Assembly (NCBI GenBank): GCA_963749655.1
Contig: CAVVOB010000030.1
Location: forward strand, 224,001 to 288,000
From: Nitrospirota bacterium
Lineage (GTDB): Bacteria; Nitrospirota; UBA9217
Direction: 5' to 3'
Length of the DNA: 64,000 bases
Both the position numbers and the translations under genes were made by a program. Shown here in pieces: positions 26,937 to 64,000 of this stretch (the first letter of the stretch is position 1; every line of letters starts with the position of its first letter). Under the pieces are notes generated by a model. The model saw only the letters and a program-made list of their open reading frames with translations. It was not told where the DNA came from and did not search any database.

Positions 26937-27070
26937 GTGAGGTCCGAGACAGCGGGCACCGGCGATGAACACCAACCACCGGTTTAATTCCAACAGGAGC
27001 CTGCCGAGACCCGGGTCAGAAAAAGAGAGTAAGGTTCATCTGCTGCTTTCTTTTGAGATTCCCGGGATGG
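26937..27070 (+). ncRNA. L10 leader (cis-regulatory RNA), boundaries approximate
   Basis: GTCCGAGACAGCGGG...TTAA...CCTGCCGAGAC pattern in the rplA-rplJ spacer. Confidence 0.75.
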
Positions 27071-27104
27071 TCATCGGGAATTCTTGAAAGAAAGGAGGAC
27101 AGGT

Positions 27105-27618
27105 TTGAATAAGGAAGAGAAAAAGGAAGCAATAAGCGAACTCCACGAAAAGTTTGCCCGCGCCAAGGCTGCAGTGATAACTGCGTATTCCGGGATCAAC
27201 GTAGAGCAGATTACGGTATCTTCGCTCAAAGCTGAGAAAAGCTCACGTAGAGTACCGCGTCGTGAAGAACACGCTCGCACGGAAGGCCGTGGAAGGAACC
27301 GGGCTGGAACCGCTCAAGGATCATTTCGTCGGGCCTGTGGGGATCGCCCTCGGCTATGAAGATGTGATTGCACCGGCAAAGGTCCTGTCCGAGTTCAGCA
27401 AGGCGCAAGACAAACTACTGCTCAAAGTCGGCGTCCTTGACGGCAAACTGCTTAAACAGGCCGACATTAAGGCTTTGGCAAGCCTGCCGTCGCTCAATGC
27501 GCTTCGGGGCAAGATCGTCGGTCTTCTTCAGGCACCGGCATCGAGGATGGTTGGCGTTCTCGCAGCACCGGGCGGACAGCTTGCCAGGGTCATGAAGGCA
27601 AAAGCAGATAAGGGCTAA
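27105..27618 (+). CDS. rplJ: 50S ribosomal protein L10, frameshifted at ~27215-27217
   Basis: TTG start after AGGAGG. Removing one base restores QITDLRSKLRKAHVEYRVVKNTL. Confidence 0.94.
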
Positions 27619-56235: not shown

Positions 56236-56266
56236 AAAGGCAAGGGTATTAACCCTTGCCTTTTTT
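56236..56266 (+). terminator. Terminator ending the ribosomal supercluster
   Basis: AAAGGCAAGGGT-ATTA-ACCCTTGCCTTT plus T-run. Confidence 0.9.
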
Positions 56267-56273
56267 ATTTGCA

Positions 56274-56302
56274 TTTACACAAAATTGCTTTTGTGTTAAA
56301 AT
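56274..56302 (+). promoter_or_regulatory. Putative sigma70 promoter of the signalling operon with overlapping palindrome
   Basis: TTTACA-17-TAAAAT; ACACAAAA-TTGC-TTTTGTGT inverted repeat at 56277-56296. Confidence 0.6.
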
Positions 56303-56331: not shown

Positions 56332-58435
56332 ATGGCAGAGGAAATAAGCATAGTCTCGCCTTTCATGTCGCGGGTGCGACGAGCAGCTTCCCGGTGGTGG
56401 GGCGGAATCGGGTGCCGCGTTTCTTTTTTCATGATGGTCGCGCTCATTCTTGTCGCGGCGCTTGTAGGCTCCTTTTTTTTCTGGGAAGAAAAGAAGAACC
56501 TTGATACCGAGATTCGAGGCAGAGCACTGTACGTGGCGCGTGAACTTGCAGCGCTGGCCGCAGACGACATCGTAACCGGCAACCGGTCCGAACTCTATAA
56601 GAAAATTTCCTCCTCCCTTTGTCGCCCACGAAGATTCCCCAGCCGGACGAACCCTCCTTTACTTGATGATTTATGACCGCGATTGTGAGCTCCTGATCGG
56701 AAGTACCGCGAACGAAGTCTTTTTCAACAGCGGTTCATATTTTTACACGCTCCCGTCAGAAAAGAGCGCGGTCCGTGATGAGGTCCAGCTGAAGTGCGAT
56801 CTTGAACAGTTGAACGAACCTTTCTTTACCGTTAAGAAGAATAATGTCTATGACCTGATTCTGCCGATTGCCGATGGAAAGATTACGGTGGGTTATGTGC
56901 GGGTCGGCATTTCAGGACAGCGGTTCGAGCAGCGATTCTCCGCTATCATGAAAAGAGCGGCTGTCGCGCTATTCGGCATCCTGCTCGTGGGGATGGCGTT
57001 CAGTCAGATCATCGCGCACGGCATAACAAAGCCGATCCAGCAGTTGAGCGATGCCGCAGAGAAGCTCAGCCAGCAGAATTGGGACGCACCGCTTCCTGTC
57101 AAAGGAGACGATGAACTGAGCAAGCTGGGGCACACTTTTAACCAAATGGCTCAGACGCTGAAGCAGCGGGAAGCAAGCCTTTCGAGGGGAAACCGGGACC
57201 TGTTCATTCTGCATACCACCGGTTTGGACCTCATGGAGAGCCTGGATCGGAACGCTCTTATCATTAAGGTGGCTGCACGAGTTGAAGATCTTGTGCGTGC
57301 GGATACGACAGCACTGTCTGTTGTGGATTCATCGGACCGGGTACTTACTTATTTGGGCGTGTACGGGCACAGGGCTAGAGTTCTGAAGGAGCGGGAACTC
57401 CCGATCGAGGCCGGCGGCATCTACAATTGGCTTGCGAGTTACGGAACCCCGCTTTTGATTTCGGACGCACAATCCGATTTTCGCCTCGACGGAGATTTGA
57501 TGCGCTCGCTCGGGGTGAGAAGCCTCATGGCTGTACCGCTGTGGTCGTCAAACACGATGATCGGGCTGCTCACGGCAGTGAATAAGAATGGCGGAGCTTG
57601 CTTTGACAAGCATGATCTAAGACTGTTCACGGTTTTCTCCAACCTCGTGTCAGCGGCACTGCAGAATGCGTCGCTCTATAACGACCTGAAGAACAAAATG
57701 GATGAGCTGAAGACAGCCCAGGAACAGCTTGTACGGTCTACCAAGATGGCGGCCATCGGAGAGCTGTCGGCCAATGTCGCACACGAGATAAATAATCCGC
57801 TGACGAGTGTCCTCGGGTATACAACGCACTTGTTGAAAACACTGGAGATGCCTGAACCGTCGAGAAAGATACTCGGGATGATGGAGCAGGAGACGCTCAG
57901 GGTCCGAAAAATAATCAGAAACCTTCTTGATTTCGCCCGTCAGCGGCCGGCATGGATGCGGCCCGAGGATGTGTCGATACCGCTTCGGGAAACGGTCGCT
58001 CTTTTCCAGGGAATCGCTCGCGATACATCCGTTGTCATTCGTGAAGATTATCAGCCTGGGCCGATTCTCGTAAATATGGATCATAATGAAATTAAGCAGG
58101 TCTTCATCAACATCGTCAATAACGCTCTCCAGGCCATGGAGGAGGGAGGGGAATTGAACATCCGCATGTACGGCCTGGACGAGAGCAATATTGTGATTGA
58201 GTTCCGGGATACCGGCACCGGCATCGAGCCGAAGCATCTCCATAGGATCTTTGAACCATTCTTTTCCACAAAAAACAACGGCGACGGAACGGGACTGGGG
58301 CTGTCCATCAGTTATCGCATTGTGCAGCATCATGGAGGGAGAATCGAGACGGAAAGCGTACCCGGGCACGGCACCACGTTCAAGGTTGTTCTTCCCCGGC
58401 ATCGTCACGTCTCGACAGCAGAGCAGTCACTATGA
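56332..58435 (+). CDS. Membrane sensor histidine kinase (TM-periplasmic-TM-HAMP-GAF-HisKA-HATPase), frameshift at ~56600-56660
   Basis: ORFs 56269 and 56663 join by a +1 shift. HAMP KPIQQL..DELSKLGHTFNQM, GAF LMAVPL..IGLLTAVN..FDKHDLRL, H-box AHEINNPL, N/G1/F/G2 boxes. Confidence 0.9.
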
Positions 58436-58451
58436 GCGAGGCGAGGGAAAT

Positions 58452-59375
58452 ATGAAGCGGATCAACTTCATGATTGCGGTCATCATGGTTCTGTCAATGT
58501 CACTGGGCTCCTGCCAGAAGGACAAAACTGATAGCAGGGATGACAAAAAAGTACAGGCTCAGCAGGAGCTGCTGATCGGACTGATTCCCGAGCAGAATGT
58601 GTTCCGGCAACGCGAACGCTACATGGCCTTGCGGAAGTATCTGACCGACAGGCTCGGCATCACCGTGAATTTTACGAGTCTCAGCAGGTACGGGAACATT
58701 CTCGAGCGTTTCACAACAGAAAAAATGGATGGAGCCTTTTTTGGCAGTTTTACCTTTGGCTTGGCCTACAGCCAGATAGGCGTTGAGCCGGTCGCAAGGC
58801 CGGTGAATCTTGACGGCACCTCCACCTACCACGGATACCTGTTTGTTCGAAAAGACAGCGGTATCCGCAGTGCAGCGGATATGCGCGGCAAACGCTTCGT
58901 GTTCGTCGATCGGGCGACGACAGCAGGCTATCTGTTTCCCCTCGCCTGGTTCAGGGAGAAAGGGGTTGCAGATCTGCGAAGCTATCTGGGAGAAACGTTC
59001 TTTGCCGGGAGTCATGACGCAGCCATTCTGGCTGTGTTGAACAGGGAAGCCGATATCGGTGCGGCAAAAAATACGATTTACGATCAGCTGGCATCGGAGA
59101 ACCCCCGTCTCAACAACGAACTGGCTATTCTGGCGACGTCCGGAGTTGTCCCTCAAAACTGTCTCGCAGTTCGCAAGAACCTCGATCCGGAGGTGAAAAG
59201 CGCCCTGAAAAAGGTCCTTGTGGAAATGGATCGGGACCGGGAAGGTGTGGAAGTACTGCGTCGGTTTGGTGCACGGGGTTTCGTCGAAACAAACAACACC
59301 GACTTCGCTTATCTGTATAAACTGACGTCGGAAGTCGGAATCGATCTGAAAACGTACCGGTACAGAAACGAATGA
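58452..59375 (+). CDS. PhnD/PtxB-like periplasmic binding lipoprotein without adjacent transporter
   Basis: Lipobox SLGSC; GLIPEQN, TYHGYLFVRKDSGI, FVFVDRATTAGYLFP, GSHDA. Confidence 0.85.
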   Translation: MKRINFMIAVIMVLSMSLGSCQKDKTDSRDDKKVQAQQELLIGLIPEQNVFRQRERYMALRKYLTDRLGITVNFTSLSRYGNILERFTTEKMDGAFFGSFTFGLAYSQIGVEPVARPVNLDGTSTYHGYLFVRKDSGIRSAADMRGKRFVFVDRATTAGYLFPLAWFREKGVADLRSYLGETFFAGSHDAAILAVLNREADIGAAKNTIYDQLASENPRLNNELAILATSGVVPQNCLAVRKNLDPEVKSALKKVLVEMDRDREGVEVLRRFGARGFVETNNTDFAYLYKLTSEVGIDLKTYRYRNE

Positions 59376-59388
59376 CGGGAACCTCTCG

Positions 59389-60828
59389 ATGAAGAAAAAA
59401 ATCCTGATGGGCTTCGGGCTGCTTCTCGCCATATTTCTCGGCGGAAGTATCATCGCCGTGATTTACATAACGAAGACGTCACAACGCATGGACAAGCTGA
59501 TCATGCTTCACCAGGTGGAAATTCTGCGCGAGGATCTGATCATTCATGTACAGCAGGTCCAGGCCCATATCTACCGGAGCAAGATCAGAAACGGCGGGGA
59601 TGCGGACGTGCTGATCGCACAGGTGCAGGAGATGGATCGCGTCATGGACTCCTGCGTGGGATGTCACCATTCTCCGGAACTGGCGCAGGGGCTGCTCGGC
59701 ATGCAAGACATGGCGAATGATTATAAGGGTGCGATCAGCCGGCTTCTCACGGCATCGGCGAATCCCCAGCGGATACTGGCGCTCGAACGTCGCGCACAGG
59801 ATCTGGGACAGGAGCTGATAACCATGACGCAGGGCATGGCCTTTACTGCCAATATGCGTCTTCAGCAGAAGACCCAGGAAACCATGGCCACCATCCGGGA
59901 AGTTCGTACAACGCTGTACGTCACTCTTCTGCTGGGGTTTGTGCTGGCGGTTCTTATCGCCTATTTCCTGGCAAGAAGCCTGGATCAACGCTTGAAAAAG
60001 CTCATGGAGGCAACCCGACGGATTGCCCGTGGCGAGCTGCAGCATCGGGTCGACATCGATGACAGCCCGGGAGGAGAGTTCGCTGAGCTGGCTGCATCGT
60101 TCAATACGATGACGCAAAACCTGCACCTTTCCCAGCGGCAGCTCGTGCAGAGCGCCAAACTGGCTGCAATAGGCGAACTTGCCACCAATGTCGCCTATGA
60201 AGTCAACAGCCCGCTGACCGGCATATTGGGGTACGCCGGTCTTTTGCTCAAGGCGGATGATATCCCTGATGAAAAGAAGGAACAATTGAGAACGATCGAG
60301 CGGGAAACCCTGAAGGCGAGGGAAACCCTGAAGCACCTGCTGGATTTTTCCCGAAGAAAACCCCCGCGGCTCGTTAACACTAATCTTTCAGCCCTCATCC
60401 AGGACGTTCTCGTCCTGGTCCGGGGACAGGCAAGAATGGGCAGCGTCGAGATCGTGCAGGACTGTTCGATCGGCCTGACGCAGATTGCCATTGACCCCGA
60501 TGAAATGAAACAGGTATTCGTGAATTTGATCAACAATGCTTTTTTTGCCATGCCGAAGGGAGGAAGGCTCTCAATCCGGTGCAGACAGGAGAGGGACCGG
60601 CTGGCCAAGGATGTCGTTGTCGTAGAGGTGACCGATACGGGTAATGGAATTCCGGAAGATCATATGGACAAGATATTTGATCCTTTTTTTACAACGCGCG
60701 CCGACAGCGGGGGAACGGGATTGGGGCTGTCGATAAGCTATATGATTGTCCAGAACCATGGTGGACGAATCGATGTGGAAAGCAAGTTAGGCCAGGGCTC
60801 GACGTTTCGGGTCATACTGCCGGTTTAA
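59389..60828 (+). CDS. Membrane sensor with periplasmic CxxCH and HAMP; kinase-like core with His->Tyr H-box
   Basis: Two TMs flanking CVGCH (codons 89-93); HAMP; H-box AYEVNSPL (TAT at 60196-60198); intact N, G1 (DTGNGI), F and G2 (GTGLGL) boxes. Confidence 0.88.
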   Translation: MKKKILMGFGLLLAIFLGGSIIAVIYITKTSQRMDKLIMLHQVEILREDLIIHVQQVQAHIYRSKIRNGGDADVLIAQVQEMDRVMDSCVGCHHSPELAQGLLGMQDMANDYKGAISRLLTASANPQRILALERRAQDLGQELITMTQGMAFTANMRLQQKTQETMATIREVRTTLYVTLLLGFVLAVLIAYFLARSLDQRLKKLMEATRRIARGELQHRVDIDDSPGGEFAELAASFNTMTQNLHLSQRQLVQSAKLAAIGELATNVAYEVNSPLTGILGYAGLLLKADDIPDEKKEQLRTIERETLKARETLKHLLDFSRRKPPRLVNTNLSALIQDVLVLVRGQARMGSVEIVQDCSIGLTQIAIDPDEMKQVFVNLINNAFFAMPKGGRLSIRCRQERDRLAKDVVVVEVTDTGNGIPEDHMDKIFDPFFTTRADSGGTGLGLSISYMIVQNHGGRIDVESKLGQGSTFRVILPV

Positions 60829-60932
60829 TGGACGGTCGCGCAAAAGGGCAGGGAAGAGTGCCGTTGTACGCTTTTTCAGGTGCATCCCTTCCCCCTGTCC
60901 GATCTTCGGGACCAGGATGAGGAGCTGAGAAG

Positions 60933-62461
60933 ATGGCTGGAGAAAAGATTCTCGTCGTCGATGACGAGGAAATGATCAGAGATCTTTGTTATCATATCCT
61001 GACGGCTGAGGGATACCAGGTGACTACGGTGGCCAACGGCGATGCGGCGCTGGAAGAGCTGTCCCGTTCAGCCGTGGATCTGATGATCACGGACATCAAG
61101 ATGCCGGGAATCGACGGACTCGAGCTCTTCGAGCGGGTGAAGGAGCAGAACCAGGACCTGGTAACGATTTTTATCACCGGCCATGGCACACTCGATACGG
61201 CGATCGAGTCGCTCATGCGCGGCGTTGACGGGTTCGTCCTCAAACCCTTTACCCAGGAGGAATTGCTCGGCGCGGTTGACCGTGCCATCAGCCGGAGCAG
61301 GCTCAAGAAGGAGAACATCAGGCTCAAGGCCTTGATCCCGCTGTTCGAGATCAGCAAGCTGCTGGTGACCGAGATCGATCTCGCGCATTTGTTCAAGATC
61401 ATCACCGAGGTGCTGGTGCAGGAATTCTCCGTGGACCGCGTCTCGCTTATGCTCATGGATGAGGCCAGCGGTACCCTCCTGATCCGCGCGTCCCACGGTC
61501 TGCCGACGGAGACGGCCTTGAAAGCCCGCCGCAGGATGGGCGAGGGCGTTGCCGGACTGGTGCTGAAATACAGAAAGCCGCTCATCATCTCGGCGGGAAA
61601 GCATCCGGACCAGGAGGTGATGGACGTGATCAATCTTGAGAACATGCCGGCATCATCGATGTCGGTTCCGCTCATCGGCAAGAATAAGATTTTCGGCGTG
61701 CTGAACGTGAGCAAATTGTCCGGCCCCCCCTTTACCACGAGCGACCTCCAGGTCGTCCTGATCCTCTCGAGCCAGGTGGTCACGGCCATGGAGAACGCGT
61801 CGTTGTATGAAGACCTGCGCGAGAATTACTTCCGGACCGTACAGGCTCTCGTGGCGGCCGTCGAGGCTAAAGACCCTTATACCCGCTGGCACTCCACCAA
61901 TGTCGCGAAATATGCAGTGGCGATCGCGACGGGATCATCGGCATGAGTCCGTCCCAGCTCGAAGAGATCCACATCGCATCCATTCTCCATGATGTCGGCA
62001 AGATCGGCATCAGCGAGCTCATCATCAGCAAGCCGGAGCGCCTGAGCAGGGAGGAATTCGACATTATGAAGGACCATCCGGCCCATGGTATCAGGATCCT
62101 TGAGCCGATCGGATTTTCTCCCTCCATTACGAGCGCCATTTATCAGCACCACGAGCGCTGGGACGGGAAAGGTTACCCCCGGGGGCTGTCCGGAGAACAG
62201 ATTACGCTTTCCGCCCGCATCCTGAATGTCGCCGATACCGTCGATGCCATGGTGTCCGAGCGTCCCTACCGCGGTACGATATCGAGCCAGCAGGTTCTCC
62301 TGGAGCTGGAGCGGGAGGCGGGACACCAGTTTGATCCGCAGGTTGCCGCATCCGCACGGCGTCTGATTGAAAAGGGCCTGCTCAAACTCGGCATGCATTC
62401 CTACTACCAGTATGCCGCTGCAGCGGATAAAATCGAGAAAAACAGCAAAGAAGCTCTCTAG
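60933..62461 (+). CDS. REC-GAF-HD-GYP response regulator (putative c-di-GMP phosphodiesterase), frameshift at ~61929-61940
   Basis: REC VVDDE..TDIKMPG..TG..KP; GAF; KDPYT..HS, LHDVGKIG, HHERWDGKGYP, VAD..DAM..RPYR. A net +2/-1 shift joins ORFs 60933 and 61943. Confidence 0.9.
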
Positions 62462-62532
62462 CGGCCCGGAGCGTGATTCGCAGCCGCCGTCAGGCGGGGA
62501 GAGTACGTGCCTTGCGAAATGACAGCGAAAAA

Positions 62533-64000
62533 ATGAAAGCAGCGCGCCAGAGAGACATATCCCGGAACGAGGGACGTGATGACATGCTGCACCACCTCGG
62601 CAGTCTCGTGGACAGCGTTACCACGGGGATCATTTCTCTCGATGGCGAAGGACAGGATCCGCGTGTTCAACACTGCTGCCGAAACCTGGTTCGGCCTGCC
62701 GCGGGTCATGGTGATCGGAAGGCACATGGATGAAATCGGCAGGATCATGGGCTTTGACGATCATTCGCTCCGGGCGCTGTGGGAGAGGCTTTCCGACGCT
62801 GTCTGGGCTGCAGGCGCAGCGGTTGATCTCGAGTATGACCTCGTGCTGCAAAGGGGCCGGCGACGGACCATGAGCTACAGTGTCTATCCTCTCGGCCGGA
62901 CGGCGTGGTCGGTCGGCAACGGCGTCGTGATCATGCTGGAGGACATCACTCGAAAAAAGGAAATGGAGGAGCAGATTTCGGACGCCCGCAAGAGGCTGCT
63001 TGCCGTGTTCGACGGGATCACTGATGGAATACAGGTCATTGACGCAGACTTCCGGATCACTGCGGTAAACAAGTCTATGCGAACGCTTCTTGCCAGGAAC
63101 ATCAAGGTCGGATCGCTCTGCTACGAGGCGTGTTCCTTTGGTTCGACGATTTGTATCGACTGCCCGGCCGAGGAGACCTTTCGGACGGGACAGCCTGCGT
63201 CGCTTACAAAAAAGATCATCGATACTGCGGCCGGTCCTGATGAGCGCGTTGTGGAGATCAGCACTTTTCCGCTTCTGGACCGGGTCAATCGTGTCGTCCA
63301 GGTCGTGGAATATATCAAGGAAGTCACCGAAAAGGCGAGGCTCGCAGAACGGCTGGAACATTCCCGCAGGCTTGCCGAACTCGGTGAAATGGCGGCCCGC
63401 GTAGCCCATGAAGTGCGGAATCCGCTGAATGCAATTACCGGAGCCGCGCATTATCTTTCCACCGAACATGCCGACAATGAGACGCTCGTAAAGTTCACCG
63501 ATCTTATCAAGCGGCAGGCGACCAGGGTCAATCAGGTGGCATCGGACCTCCTGTATGTCTCCAAGCCCCTGCGGACCCGGCTTACGCCGGTGCAGGTGAA
63601 CGCCGTAATTGACCAGGTGCTCGATTCCCTCTGCGAGCAGCTCCACGATCAACGGATAGAAGTTGTCCAGTCACCTGCGCCGGACATCCCCCCGATCTTT
63701 GCCGATGAGCTCCAGATAGAACAGGCTGTTCAGAACATTCTCCGGAACGCAGTCGAGGCCATGTCCGGCGGCGGTACGCTCCGGATATCCACCGCGTTGA
63801 CGGCAGGGCGCTCCGTCGTGGAAATCATCATGGAGGACACGGGACAGGGCATTCCGGAACAGGACCGTGAACGGATATTTCAGTCCTTTTTTACCACAAA
63901 GATCAAGGGGACCGGTCTTGGATTGACCATCGTGCAGCGCGTTCTCAAGAACCACGGCGGCGAGATTGTAATGGAGCATCCGGCAGGCGGCGGCACCCGG
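62533..64000 (+). CDS. Cytoplasmic PAS-PAS histidine kinase (3'-truncated by window; +1 frameshift at ~62648), main frame not in ORF track
   Basis: Hand translation after the shift: RIRVFNTAAE (PAS1), AVFDGITDGIQVID..CYEAC..CIDCP (PAS2), AHEVRNPL, NILRNA, DTGQGI, FFTTK, GTGLGL; open to the window end. Confidence 0.88.

Follow-up and report, generated by a model that had tools for sequence, protein, structure and literature searches.

The last part of a 64,000-nucleotide stretch of DNA from a Nitrospirota bacterium (assembly GCA_963749655.1, contig CAVVOB010000030.1, positions 224,001 to 288,000; hereafter the window, whose full length sets our numbering) carries a signalling operon with an unusual kinase-like protein, HemeY. 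The source genome is referred to as G000 and the contig with the operon as C30. Two membrane proteins with histidine kinase cores, K1 and HemeY, flank a PhnD-like binding protein and are followed by RGH, a response regulator with REC, GAF and HD-GYP domains, and by a soluble PAS kinase (Table 1). We propose that these proteins form two circuits, in one of which HemeY, a sister of K1 with tyrosine in place of the phosphoacceptor histidine, would act as a drain on RGH.

An earlier note on this DNA had described five co-directional genes and their domains, and its description holds: the gaps are 16, 13, 104 and 71 bp, and the domains were recovered by Pfam, with which intact orthologues were read likewise. 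The note had also taken RGH, which has no DNA-binding domain, for the only receiver in view, and among the findings that would refute its reading it had named a cognate DNA-binding regulator just downstream. Past position 64000 such a receiver is found, which for the Cys-PAS kinase speaks against that reading. The operon has six genes, and the sixth, entirely beyond the window end, encodes a sigma54 activator whose start overlaps the PAS kinase stop by 4 nt.

Table 1. Features of the operon, in window numbering unless stated otherwise (TM, transmembrane helix; aa, amino acids)
Feature	Position	Strand	Description	Remarks
Intrinsic terminator	56236..56263	+	closes the rpoA-rplQ operon	motif in 48 of 55 family loci read
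Sigma70-type promoter	56274..56302	+	extended -10, TTTACA-17-TAAAAT	motif in 42 of 55 family loci read
K1	56332..58435	+	TM, periplasmic Cache-like domain, TM, HAMP, GAF, HisKA, HATPase; about 700 aa
PhnD-like protein	58452..59375	+	PhnD/PtxB-fold periplasmic binding protein, PF12974; lipoprotein-like signal LGSC
HemeY	59389..60828	+	TM, periplasmic four-helix bundle, TM, HAMP, HisKA with Tyr 270, HATPase
RGH	60933..62461	+	REC-GAF-HD-GYP response regulator; about 509 aa
PAS kinase	62533..64000, on to 64126 (G000:C30:288126)	+	soluble PAS-PAS HisKA kinase
Sigma54 activator	G000:C30:288123-289529 (L001:10124-11530); window-equivalent start 64123		NtrC family; REC, AAA+ with GAFTGA, HTH_8; 468 aa	after the PAS kinase

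The operon has a promoter of its own, as the earlier note had proposed: a sigma70-type site follows the terminator of the preceding operon, and both are conserved in family loci. Promoter-like sites are not in excess across the region (7, against 4.5 +/- 2.2 in shuffles), but this one is conserved.

Distribution was surveyed in 64 genomes of the family, many of them incomplete, and absence here means 'not found'. Co-inheritance was tested on a tree of 62 genomes with independent pairs, and six contig-limited genomes were left out of the tally of PAS kinase and activator. RGH is the core gene of the operon. It is found in single copy at the rplQ locus in 62 of the 64 genomes (61 and a frameshifted copy in G062), and only 5 of 207 genomes outside the family have a match, at no more than 46% identity. 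K1 is present in 48 genomes and the PAS kinase in 31 (one remnant dropped in each case), HemeY in 35, and the PhnD-like gene at 20 family loci, with two loci ending at a contig edge. Gene order is constant wherever operon genes are seen together. A conserved operon in the sense of a fixed order within one family thus stands, but the five window genes co-occur in only 14 of the 64 genomes, and we reject the idea that they form a fixed unit. Several relatives (L159, L166, L174, L175, L179, L181, L198, L170 and L199) bear short scars where K1, HemeY, PhnD or the activator was deleted, which suggests repeated modular loss from a fuller ancestor while RGH stays.

The activator is present at 28 of 28 assessable loci with the PAS kinase and at none of 28 without it, and all seven independent pairs agree (7/7, sign test p 0.016). 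The PhnD-like gene lies directly before HemeY at all 20 loci that have it and is absent from the 27 assessable loci without HemeY. K1 accompanies HemeY in 33 of 35 genomes, is found without it in 15, and directly precedes RGH where HemeY is missing; G020 and G016 represent two lineages with HemeY but no K1. On independent pairs of the 62-genome tree, presence of the PAS kinase is not linked to that of HemeY or K1 (about 6 of 7 pairs unchanged).

In a smaller sample, the haem sensor had orthologues in 20 of 36 genomes of the same family and in none of 24 from elsewhere in the phylum. Of the named orthologous loci, 28 of 29 belong to metagenome-assembled genomes labelled Nitrospirota, Nitrospirae, Nitrospiria or Nitrospiraceae. 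L052 has the operon as well, at 75-92% identity, under the title 'Betaproteobacteria bacterium'; this points to mislabelling and not to transfer.

HemeY and its sister kinase K1

K1 had been described as a HAMP-GAF kinase. Both domains are present, but the description left out a periplasmic domain between two membrane helices, which is modelled with a Cache-like alpha/beta fold (the matches are weak, best E 1.4e-3). The phosphoacceptor histidine of K1 (codon 57782-57784) is found in all 45 DHp domains read.

In HemeY this histidine of the H-box is replaced by Tyr 270 (codon 60196-60198). Both Tyr 270 and a CxxCH motif at residues 89-93 are present as the earlier note had read them, and they make HemeY a putative c-haem sensor with a His-to-Tyr H-box. 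Tyrosine is found in the H-box of 34 of 35 orthologues (33 of 34 by H-box alignment, and G019), and the codons are TAT in 19, TAC in 14 and CAT in one of 34. Conservation extends through the core: 61 of 70 DHp positions are conserved in at least 80%, the N, G1, F and G2 boxes for ATP binding are intact here and largely kept in the 33 orthologues read, and the Asn of the phosphatase motif at H+4 is present in 30 of 34. Because the tyrosine is kept with both of its codons, together with the DHp domain, the H+4 Asn and the ATP boxes, HemeY is taken to be under selection.

The HemeY core is the sister of K1 (SH-like approximate likelihood ratio test, SH-aLRT, 99.6). The approximately unbiased (AU) test rejects a grouping with the His-type haem kinases (p 1e-4), and with it the idea that HemeY is a mutated kinase of that type; tree and test cover 30 of the 80 rows of a larger set. 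K1 is also the best match of this core in G000, at 46% identity.

The two sisters also agree at three positions downstream of the phosphoacceptor site. H+7, H+11 and H+12 are Thr, Gly and Tyr in K1 (45, 45 and 44 of 45) and in HemeY (31, 32 and 30 of 34), and Asn, Gly and Ala in the PAS kinase (31 of 31). Among 15 H-boxes of G000 read by pattern, only those of K1 and HemeY have the Thr/Gly/Tyr set. These positions correspond to Thr 250, Leu 254 and Ala 255 of EnvZ, where specificity is set and can be rewired (PMC2991266; this and the other papers cited are drawn on in excerpt). By these residues HemeY appears to retain the receiver-specificity surface of K1, as if a receiver still binds, while its H-box would leave it unable to donate phosphate through a histidine. 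The haem sensor, one of the inputs in the earlier note, would thus not supply phosphate by way of a His.

The CxxCHH sensor domain and its binding-protein partner

The CxxCHH motif of HemeY (codons 59653-59670) is situated between two membrane helices, in a periplasmic domain for which there is no Pfam match. The model of this domain has four helices and no strand (predicted local distance difference test, pLDDT, 88.7). By fold it matches the sensor domains of Adeh_2942, Vc1313, PcaY and LytS (Z 14.5-16.9), with LytS at Z 14.5 (root-mean-square deviation (rmsd) 1.7, 117 aligned) and TorS at Z 13.2 (rmsd 2.3, 112 aligned), although for helical bundles Z near 13-17 denotes a shared fold and not functional kinship. 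A sequence search for solved relatives of the domain returned none that was meaningful, and its Atlas neighbours are unnamed clusters and clusters of the 4HB_MCP_1, CHASE3 and TarH kind.

A profile search found about 376 clusters at 50% identity that carry the domain, and motifs and outputs were counted in the representatives of the best 150 of them. CxxCH is present in 149 of the 150, the exception being a fragment of 88 residues, and it is followed by a further His in 148 of 149. His 41 is kept in 143 of these best 150. In the model its helix register puts it close to the membrane, at the height of the motif, and it may provide the sixth haem ligand. The outputs among the best 150 are kinases (60), kinase-receiver proteins (24), GGDEF with or without EAL (12) and others (8), the remaining 46 being fragments.

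We also read 51 distant loci from Nitrospirota, Deferrimicrobiaceae, Anaeromyxobacteraceae, Acidobacteriota, Syntrophaceae and others. In 45 of the 51 the gene immediately upstream of the sensor is PhnD-like. A sigma54 regulator follows the sensor in 38 of the 41 loci where this could be judged, and 28 of 51 have an open reading frame with at least five CxxCH motifs nearby. The H-box residue is His in all 37 that were read (14 of the 51 were not).

G000 itself has two further CxxCHH sensor copies and four PF01578 matches to cytochrome c assembly genes. In one copy (G000:C38, L200:7242-11132) a PhnD gene accompanies a CxxCHH sensor with GGDEF-EAL attached by way of PAS, and the assembly has a frameshift here; paralogues of similar length (950-980 aa) occur across the family. 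The other (G000:C18, L201:2773-9844) is a His-type CxxCHH kinase with a sigma54 regulator near the gene of a 961-aa multihaem cytochrome, which we take to resemble OmcA/MtrC.

The PhnD-like protein, called an orphan in the earlier note, is thus the regular partner gene of the haem-motif sensor, travelling with it in 20 of 20 family loci and in 45 of 51 distant ones. Its gene (PF12974) has a sensor kinase gene as neighbour but no ABC transporter genes; among solved structures PtxB is closest, the Tyr, Tyr and His of the pocket are kept, and an oxyanion is its likely ligand. Because the pair recurs at distant loci and elsewhere in G000, binding protein and haem sensor appear to form a portable input module. 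The binding protein looks like a co-sensor, as the earlier note had it. The sensor domain stays conserved after loss of PhnD and can therefore probably work alone. A decay of HemeY once PhnD is lost was considered and is unsupported (20 versus 13 genomes, p 0.24-0.88). A partnership of PhnD with the Cache domain of K1, in the manner of AioS, is disfavoured by the 27 assessable loci without HemeY and without PhnD, 15 of them in genomes with K1, and by G020, where PhnD is kept with HemeY and K1 is missing.

In open-licence PMC and bioRxiv main texts we found no description of the CxxCHH four-helix domain or of this operon. It is a tentative suggestion, and one that may well fail, that the domain represents an undescribed class of periplasmic c-haem receptors, read together with a PhnD-fold protein and controlling, in Nitrospirota as in several other anaerobic phyla, multihaem cytochrome genes and c-di-GMP (cyclic di-GMP) enzymes, and that here, on a His-to-Tyr kinase copy, it has become a haem-gated dedicated phosphatase. 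If so, the kinase and the phosphatase of one receiver would sit on two sister receptors with separate inputs. Near multihaem cytochrome genes, the four-helix sensor and its PhnD-fold partner could read the periplasmic redox state or respiratory oxyanions in anaerobic lineages.

Two putative circuits and the alternatives

The output of the first circuit would be RGH. The receiver residues D10, D11, D54, T82 and K104 are present in 62 of 62 sequences, and the HD, the HHExxDGxGYP motif and the remaining metal ligands are invariant in the same 62. Aligned to PmGH (E 4.7e-37 with the G008 orthologue as query), RGH has the motif RPYR, which ends in Arg in 61 of 62 and in His in one, and a motif RxY[K/R] favours c-di-GMP over cyclic GMP-AMP (10.1101/2021.11.05.467447). 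The position of PmGH Glu 185 is Tyr in all 62; with no Glu or Asp there, the trinuclear PmGH type is rejected in favour of the binuclear subclass. RGH is most likely a c-di-GMP-degrading enzyme of the RpfG-like, binuclear type, in agreement with the output toward c-di-GMP proposed earlier. G000 has 31 matches to GGDEF genes, some of them split.

The PAS kinase has a C-x3-C-x6-C-x2-C motif (63119-63163), with all four cysteines in 30 of 31 orthologues. On general grounds such a domain is probably an iron-sulphur or metal redox site; no paper on the motif was found in open-licence PMC and bioRxiv. G000 has two rpoN-like genes (G000:C24:118575-119051 and C27:17562-18038), at an estimated genome contamination of 5.84%. 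A genome-wide search for targets of the activator gave 7 perfect sigma54 sites and, with one mismatch, 187 matches against 328 in the control, none of which could be assigned.

We propose that one promoter would drive both circuits. In the first, K1 would phosphorylate RGH as an ordinary membrane histidine kinase, and RGH would break down c-di-GMP, probably to pGpG. HemeY would have arisen by fusion of a CxxCHH four-helix sensor, which brought its binding-protein gene along, to a second copy of the K1 kinase core, in which the His became Tyr. It would serve as a signal-gated drain on RGH, dephosphorylating phosphorylated RGH (RGH~P), or binding and holding it, according to the state of a periplasmic haem, and the PhnD-like protein would add an optional oxyanion input. 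In favour of phosphatase activity are the Asn kept at H+4 in most orthologues and the EnvZ variant H243Y, which is reported to retain some such activity. In the second circuit, the soluble Cys-PAS kinase would phosphorylate the overlapping sigma54 activator. Gene content, domain make-up, co-inheritance, residue conservation and the tree position of the HemeY core are observed; from them we infer every phosphotransfer, the attachment of haem, the ligands and the direction of regulation. We give these two circuits a probability of about 0.5.

Several points weigh against them. H+4 of HemeY is Ser, not Asn, in this genome, and the sole His-bearing orthologue (G006, L034), which groups with the Tyr forms, may be a revertant and so offer a natural control. 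Phosphatase catalysis in HK853 involves the His itself (PMC5727384), and DivL, a known Tyr pseudokinase, has by the excerpted account no phosphatase activity and stabilises DivK~P (PMC4211667). The K1-HemeY link is not significant on independent pairs, and the HemeY of G016, where K1 is missing, has a drifted H-box. RGH is intact in 14 of 62 genomes without K1, so that other phosphodonors, or none, may serve it. Adjacency could account for part of the co-loss of PAS kinase and activator, and the trees are 'quick' IQ-TREE runs.

A rather unlikely alternative keeps the same two circuits and makes HemeY an allosteric co-receptor, which would tune the kinase activity of K1 in heterodimers or higher complexes and never touch the receiver. 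Such a role would suit sister DHp domains at 46% identity and the presence of K1 in 33 of 35 genomes with HemeY, and the intact ATP-binding boxes of HemeY could phosphorylate the K1 His in trans. Heterodimers of two paralogous kinases, ChrS and HrrS, have been seen by two-hybrid assay (PMC9491836), but kinase heterodimers are reported to be rare. HemeY is moreover kept without K1 in G020, with an intact H-box, and in G016, and its outward receiver-docking residues are conserved.

That all three kinase-like proteins act on RGH, a branched PAS kinase phosphorylating both receivers, is improbable. This comes closest to the convergence of periplasmic oxyanion, periplasmic redox or gas, and cytoplasmic redox inputs that the earlier note had placed on the HD-GYP regulator. 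For K1, PhnD and the haem sensor that arm remains plausible; the Cys-PAS kinase is instead co-inherited with the activator and has specificity residues unlike those of K1. Three inputs on one phosphodiesterase are unlikely because the PAS kinase and the activator come and go as a pair, whichever of the other sensors are present. Convergence could draw on the six genes behind one promoter in constant order, on the four genomes with RGH and PAS kinase but without K1 (G004, G011, G074 and G020) and on a Fisher test of PAS kinase against HemeY (p 0.04, uncorrected for kinship). On independent pairs, however, the PAS kinase has no link to HemeY or K1; in assessable loci it is never without the activator; and RGH is kept even where all three kinase-like genes are missing.

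It is very improbable that HemeY is an active tyrosine autokinase, or that Tyr 270 is a phospho-dependent contact, with a separate output: no separate partner of HemeY is seen at any locus, and DivL is described in the excerpted text as without autokinase activity in vitro (PMC4211667), even though the same account has the DivL Tyr matter for fitness, the HemeY tyrosine is specifically kept in 34 of 35 orthologues through synonymous codon change, and the ATP-binding boxes are intact.

Three of the five window genes are frameshifted: K1 near 56600-56607, RGH near 61928-61937 and the PAS kinase near 62652. We weighed these breaks, which the earlier note does not mention, against the background error rate of this assembly. 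Compared with the intact genes of a relative, it has 12 frameshifts over 60 kb, in 10 of 57 genes, and 2 over 28 kb of conserved genes. Three in 7.8 kb lie within this range and can be taken as ordinary error, so the breaks are probably assembly errors. Orthologues of the operon genes are mostly intact, and a few relatives' assemblies have breaks of their own. One of the frameshifts in the conserved genes, in a gene of the ribosomal cluster that we take to be L10 (window about 27042-27615, G000:C30:251042-251615), is a sign of indel errors in the assembly. That the three breaks are genuine and HemeY a dead relic is hardly credible: three broken genes of five and the scars of K1, PhnD or HemeY in several relatives would fit decay, but so many breaks fit the assembly background, the broken pieces are 62-92% identical to same-genus orthologues (save the short PAS-kinase start, 53%), and HemeY is conserved throughout the family.

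Related systems and genes downstream

The operon is built from known kinds of parts, with a sensor domain that is apparently undescribed. HemeY resembles DivL of Caulobacter crescentus (Tyr 550), in which a HisKA fold likewise has a conserved Tyr for His and docking of the phosphorylated receiver has been proposed (PMC4211667). DivL has weak affinity for an ATP analogue and acts in the cell cycle on another kinase, CckA, whereas HemeY has intact ATP boxes and the H+4 Asn of its family (same source for DivL). HemeY also differs in its periplasmic haem-motif four-helix input with HAMP and in its place next to K1, its sister, and a c-di-GMP phosphodiesterase. The four-helix input, the HAMP domain and the core sister to K1 rule out a DivL orthologue with PAS inputs and a DivK/CckA pathway. 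HemeY is thus a His-to-Tyr pseudokinase unrelated to DivL, kept family-deep beside an active sister. The two form a natural pair for asking whether a Tyr H-box serves as phosphatase, for docking or in a heterodimer, a question that can be addressed with soluble domains and for which culture of the host is unnecessary.

With AioX/AioS/AioR and with ArrX and ArxX the operon shares a PF12974 protein gene beside a sensor kinase and, in its His-type relatives, a sigma54 regulator (PMC5908839, PMC8050422). AioX also has the pocket Tyr, Tyr and His of the PhnD-like protein, but the position of its Cys 106 (Gly 65 in PhnD; PMC5908839), mapped through PtxB/PhnD equivalence and not by direct alignment, is Gly in 58 of 58 sequences. 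The closest solved structure is PtxB, and no arsenic enzyme genes are seen flanking the locus; with no match for the pocket Cys, an arsenic sensor of the AioX/ArxX/ArrX type is rejected. AioS, furthermore, is modelled as sCache, while the partner with which the PhnD-like protein co-occurs is the four-helix haem-motif domain.

A binding protein paired with a helical-bundle periplasmic sensor is common to this operon and to TorT/TorS and XylFII/LytS. The TorS and LytS sensors are not known to carry a haem motif. Both systems use other families of binding protein (PMC8050422). The sCache_heme sensors (DUF3365/Tll0287, for example GSU0582), which are enriched in Nitrospirota, share a periplasmic CxxCH input on kinases or GGDEF/EAL outputs (PMC12889525). 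Theirs is a Cache fold, in contrast to the four helices of HemeY with CxxCHH and conserved His 41; the strand-free model and the lack of a Pfam match rule out that HemeY belongs to them.

RGH has REC and HD-GYP, all metal ligands and RxY[K/R] in common with PmGH and the RpfG-family regulators of REC-PAS/GAF-HD-GYP type, an architecture that is fairly common (10.1101/2021.11.05.467447). It differs in being of the binuclear type and a near-universal, single-copy family gene at the rplQ locus, and in its proposed control by a kinase and the Tyr sister of that kinase. The last two genes are like NtrB/NtrC, a HisKA kinase overlapping a REC-AAA+-HTH gene with GAFTGA; the difference is the four-Cys PAS input found here.

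In many relatives the operon is followed by a gene for a DUF2301 membrane protein (L001:11612-12208, minus strand) and by one for a 447-aa protein without a Pfam match (L001:12852-14195, plus strand), presumably an outer-membrane porin. Both follow it regardless of whether the PAS kinase and activator are present, and no sigma54 site was found in the 350 nt before the porin-like gene at 27 loci. The porin-like gene has a conserved leader (L001:12702-12854, G000:C30:290701-290853), for which a search for riboswitches gave no Rfam match in 7 loci, nor one by E-value in L001. In family loci the leader contains a G-rich box, some 130 nt ahead of the start, and a hairpin of 5 pairs, 4 of them with changes on both sides, immediately before the ribosome site (20 of 27 loci aligned).

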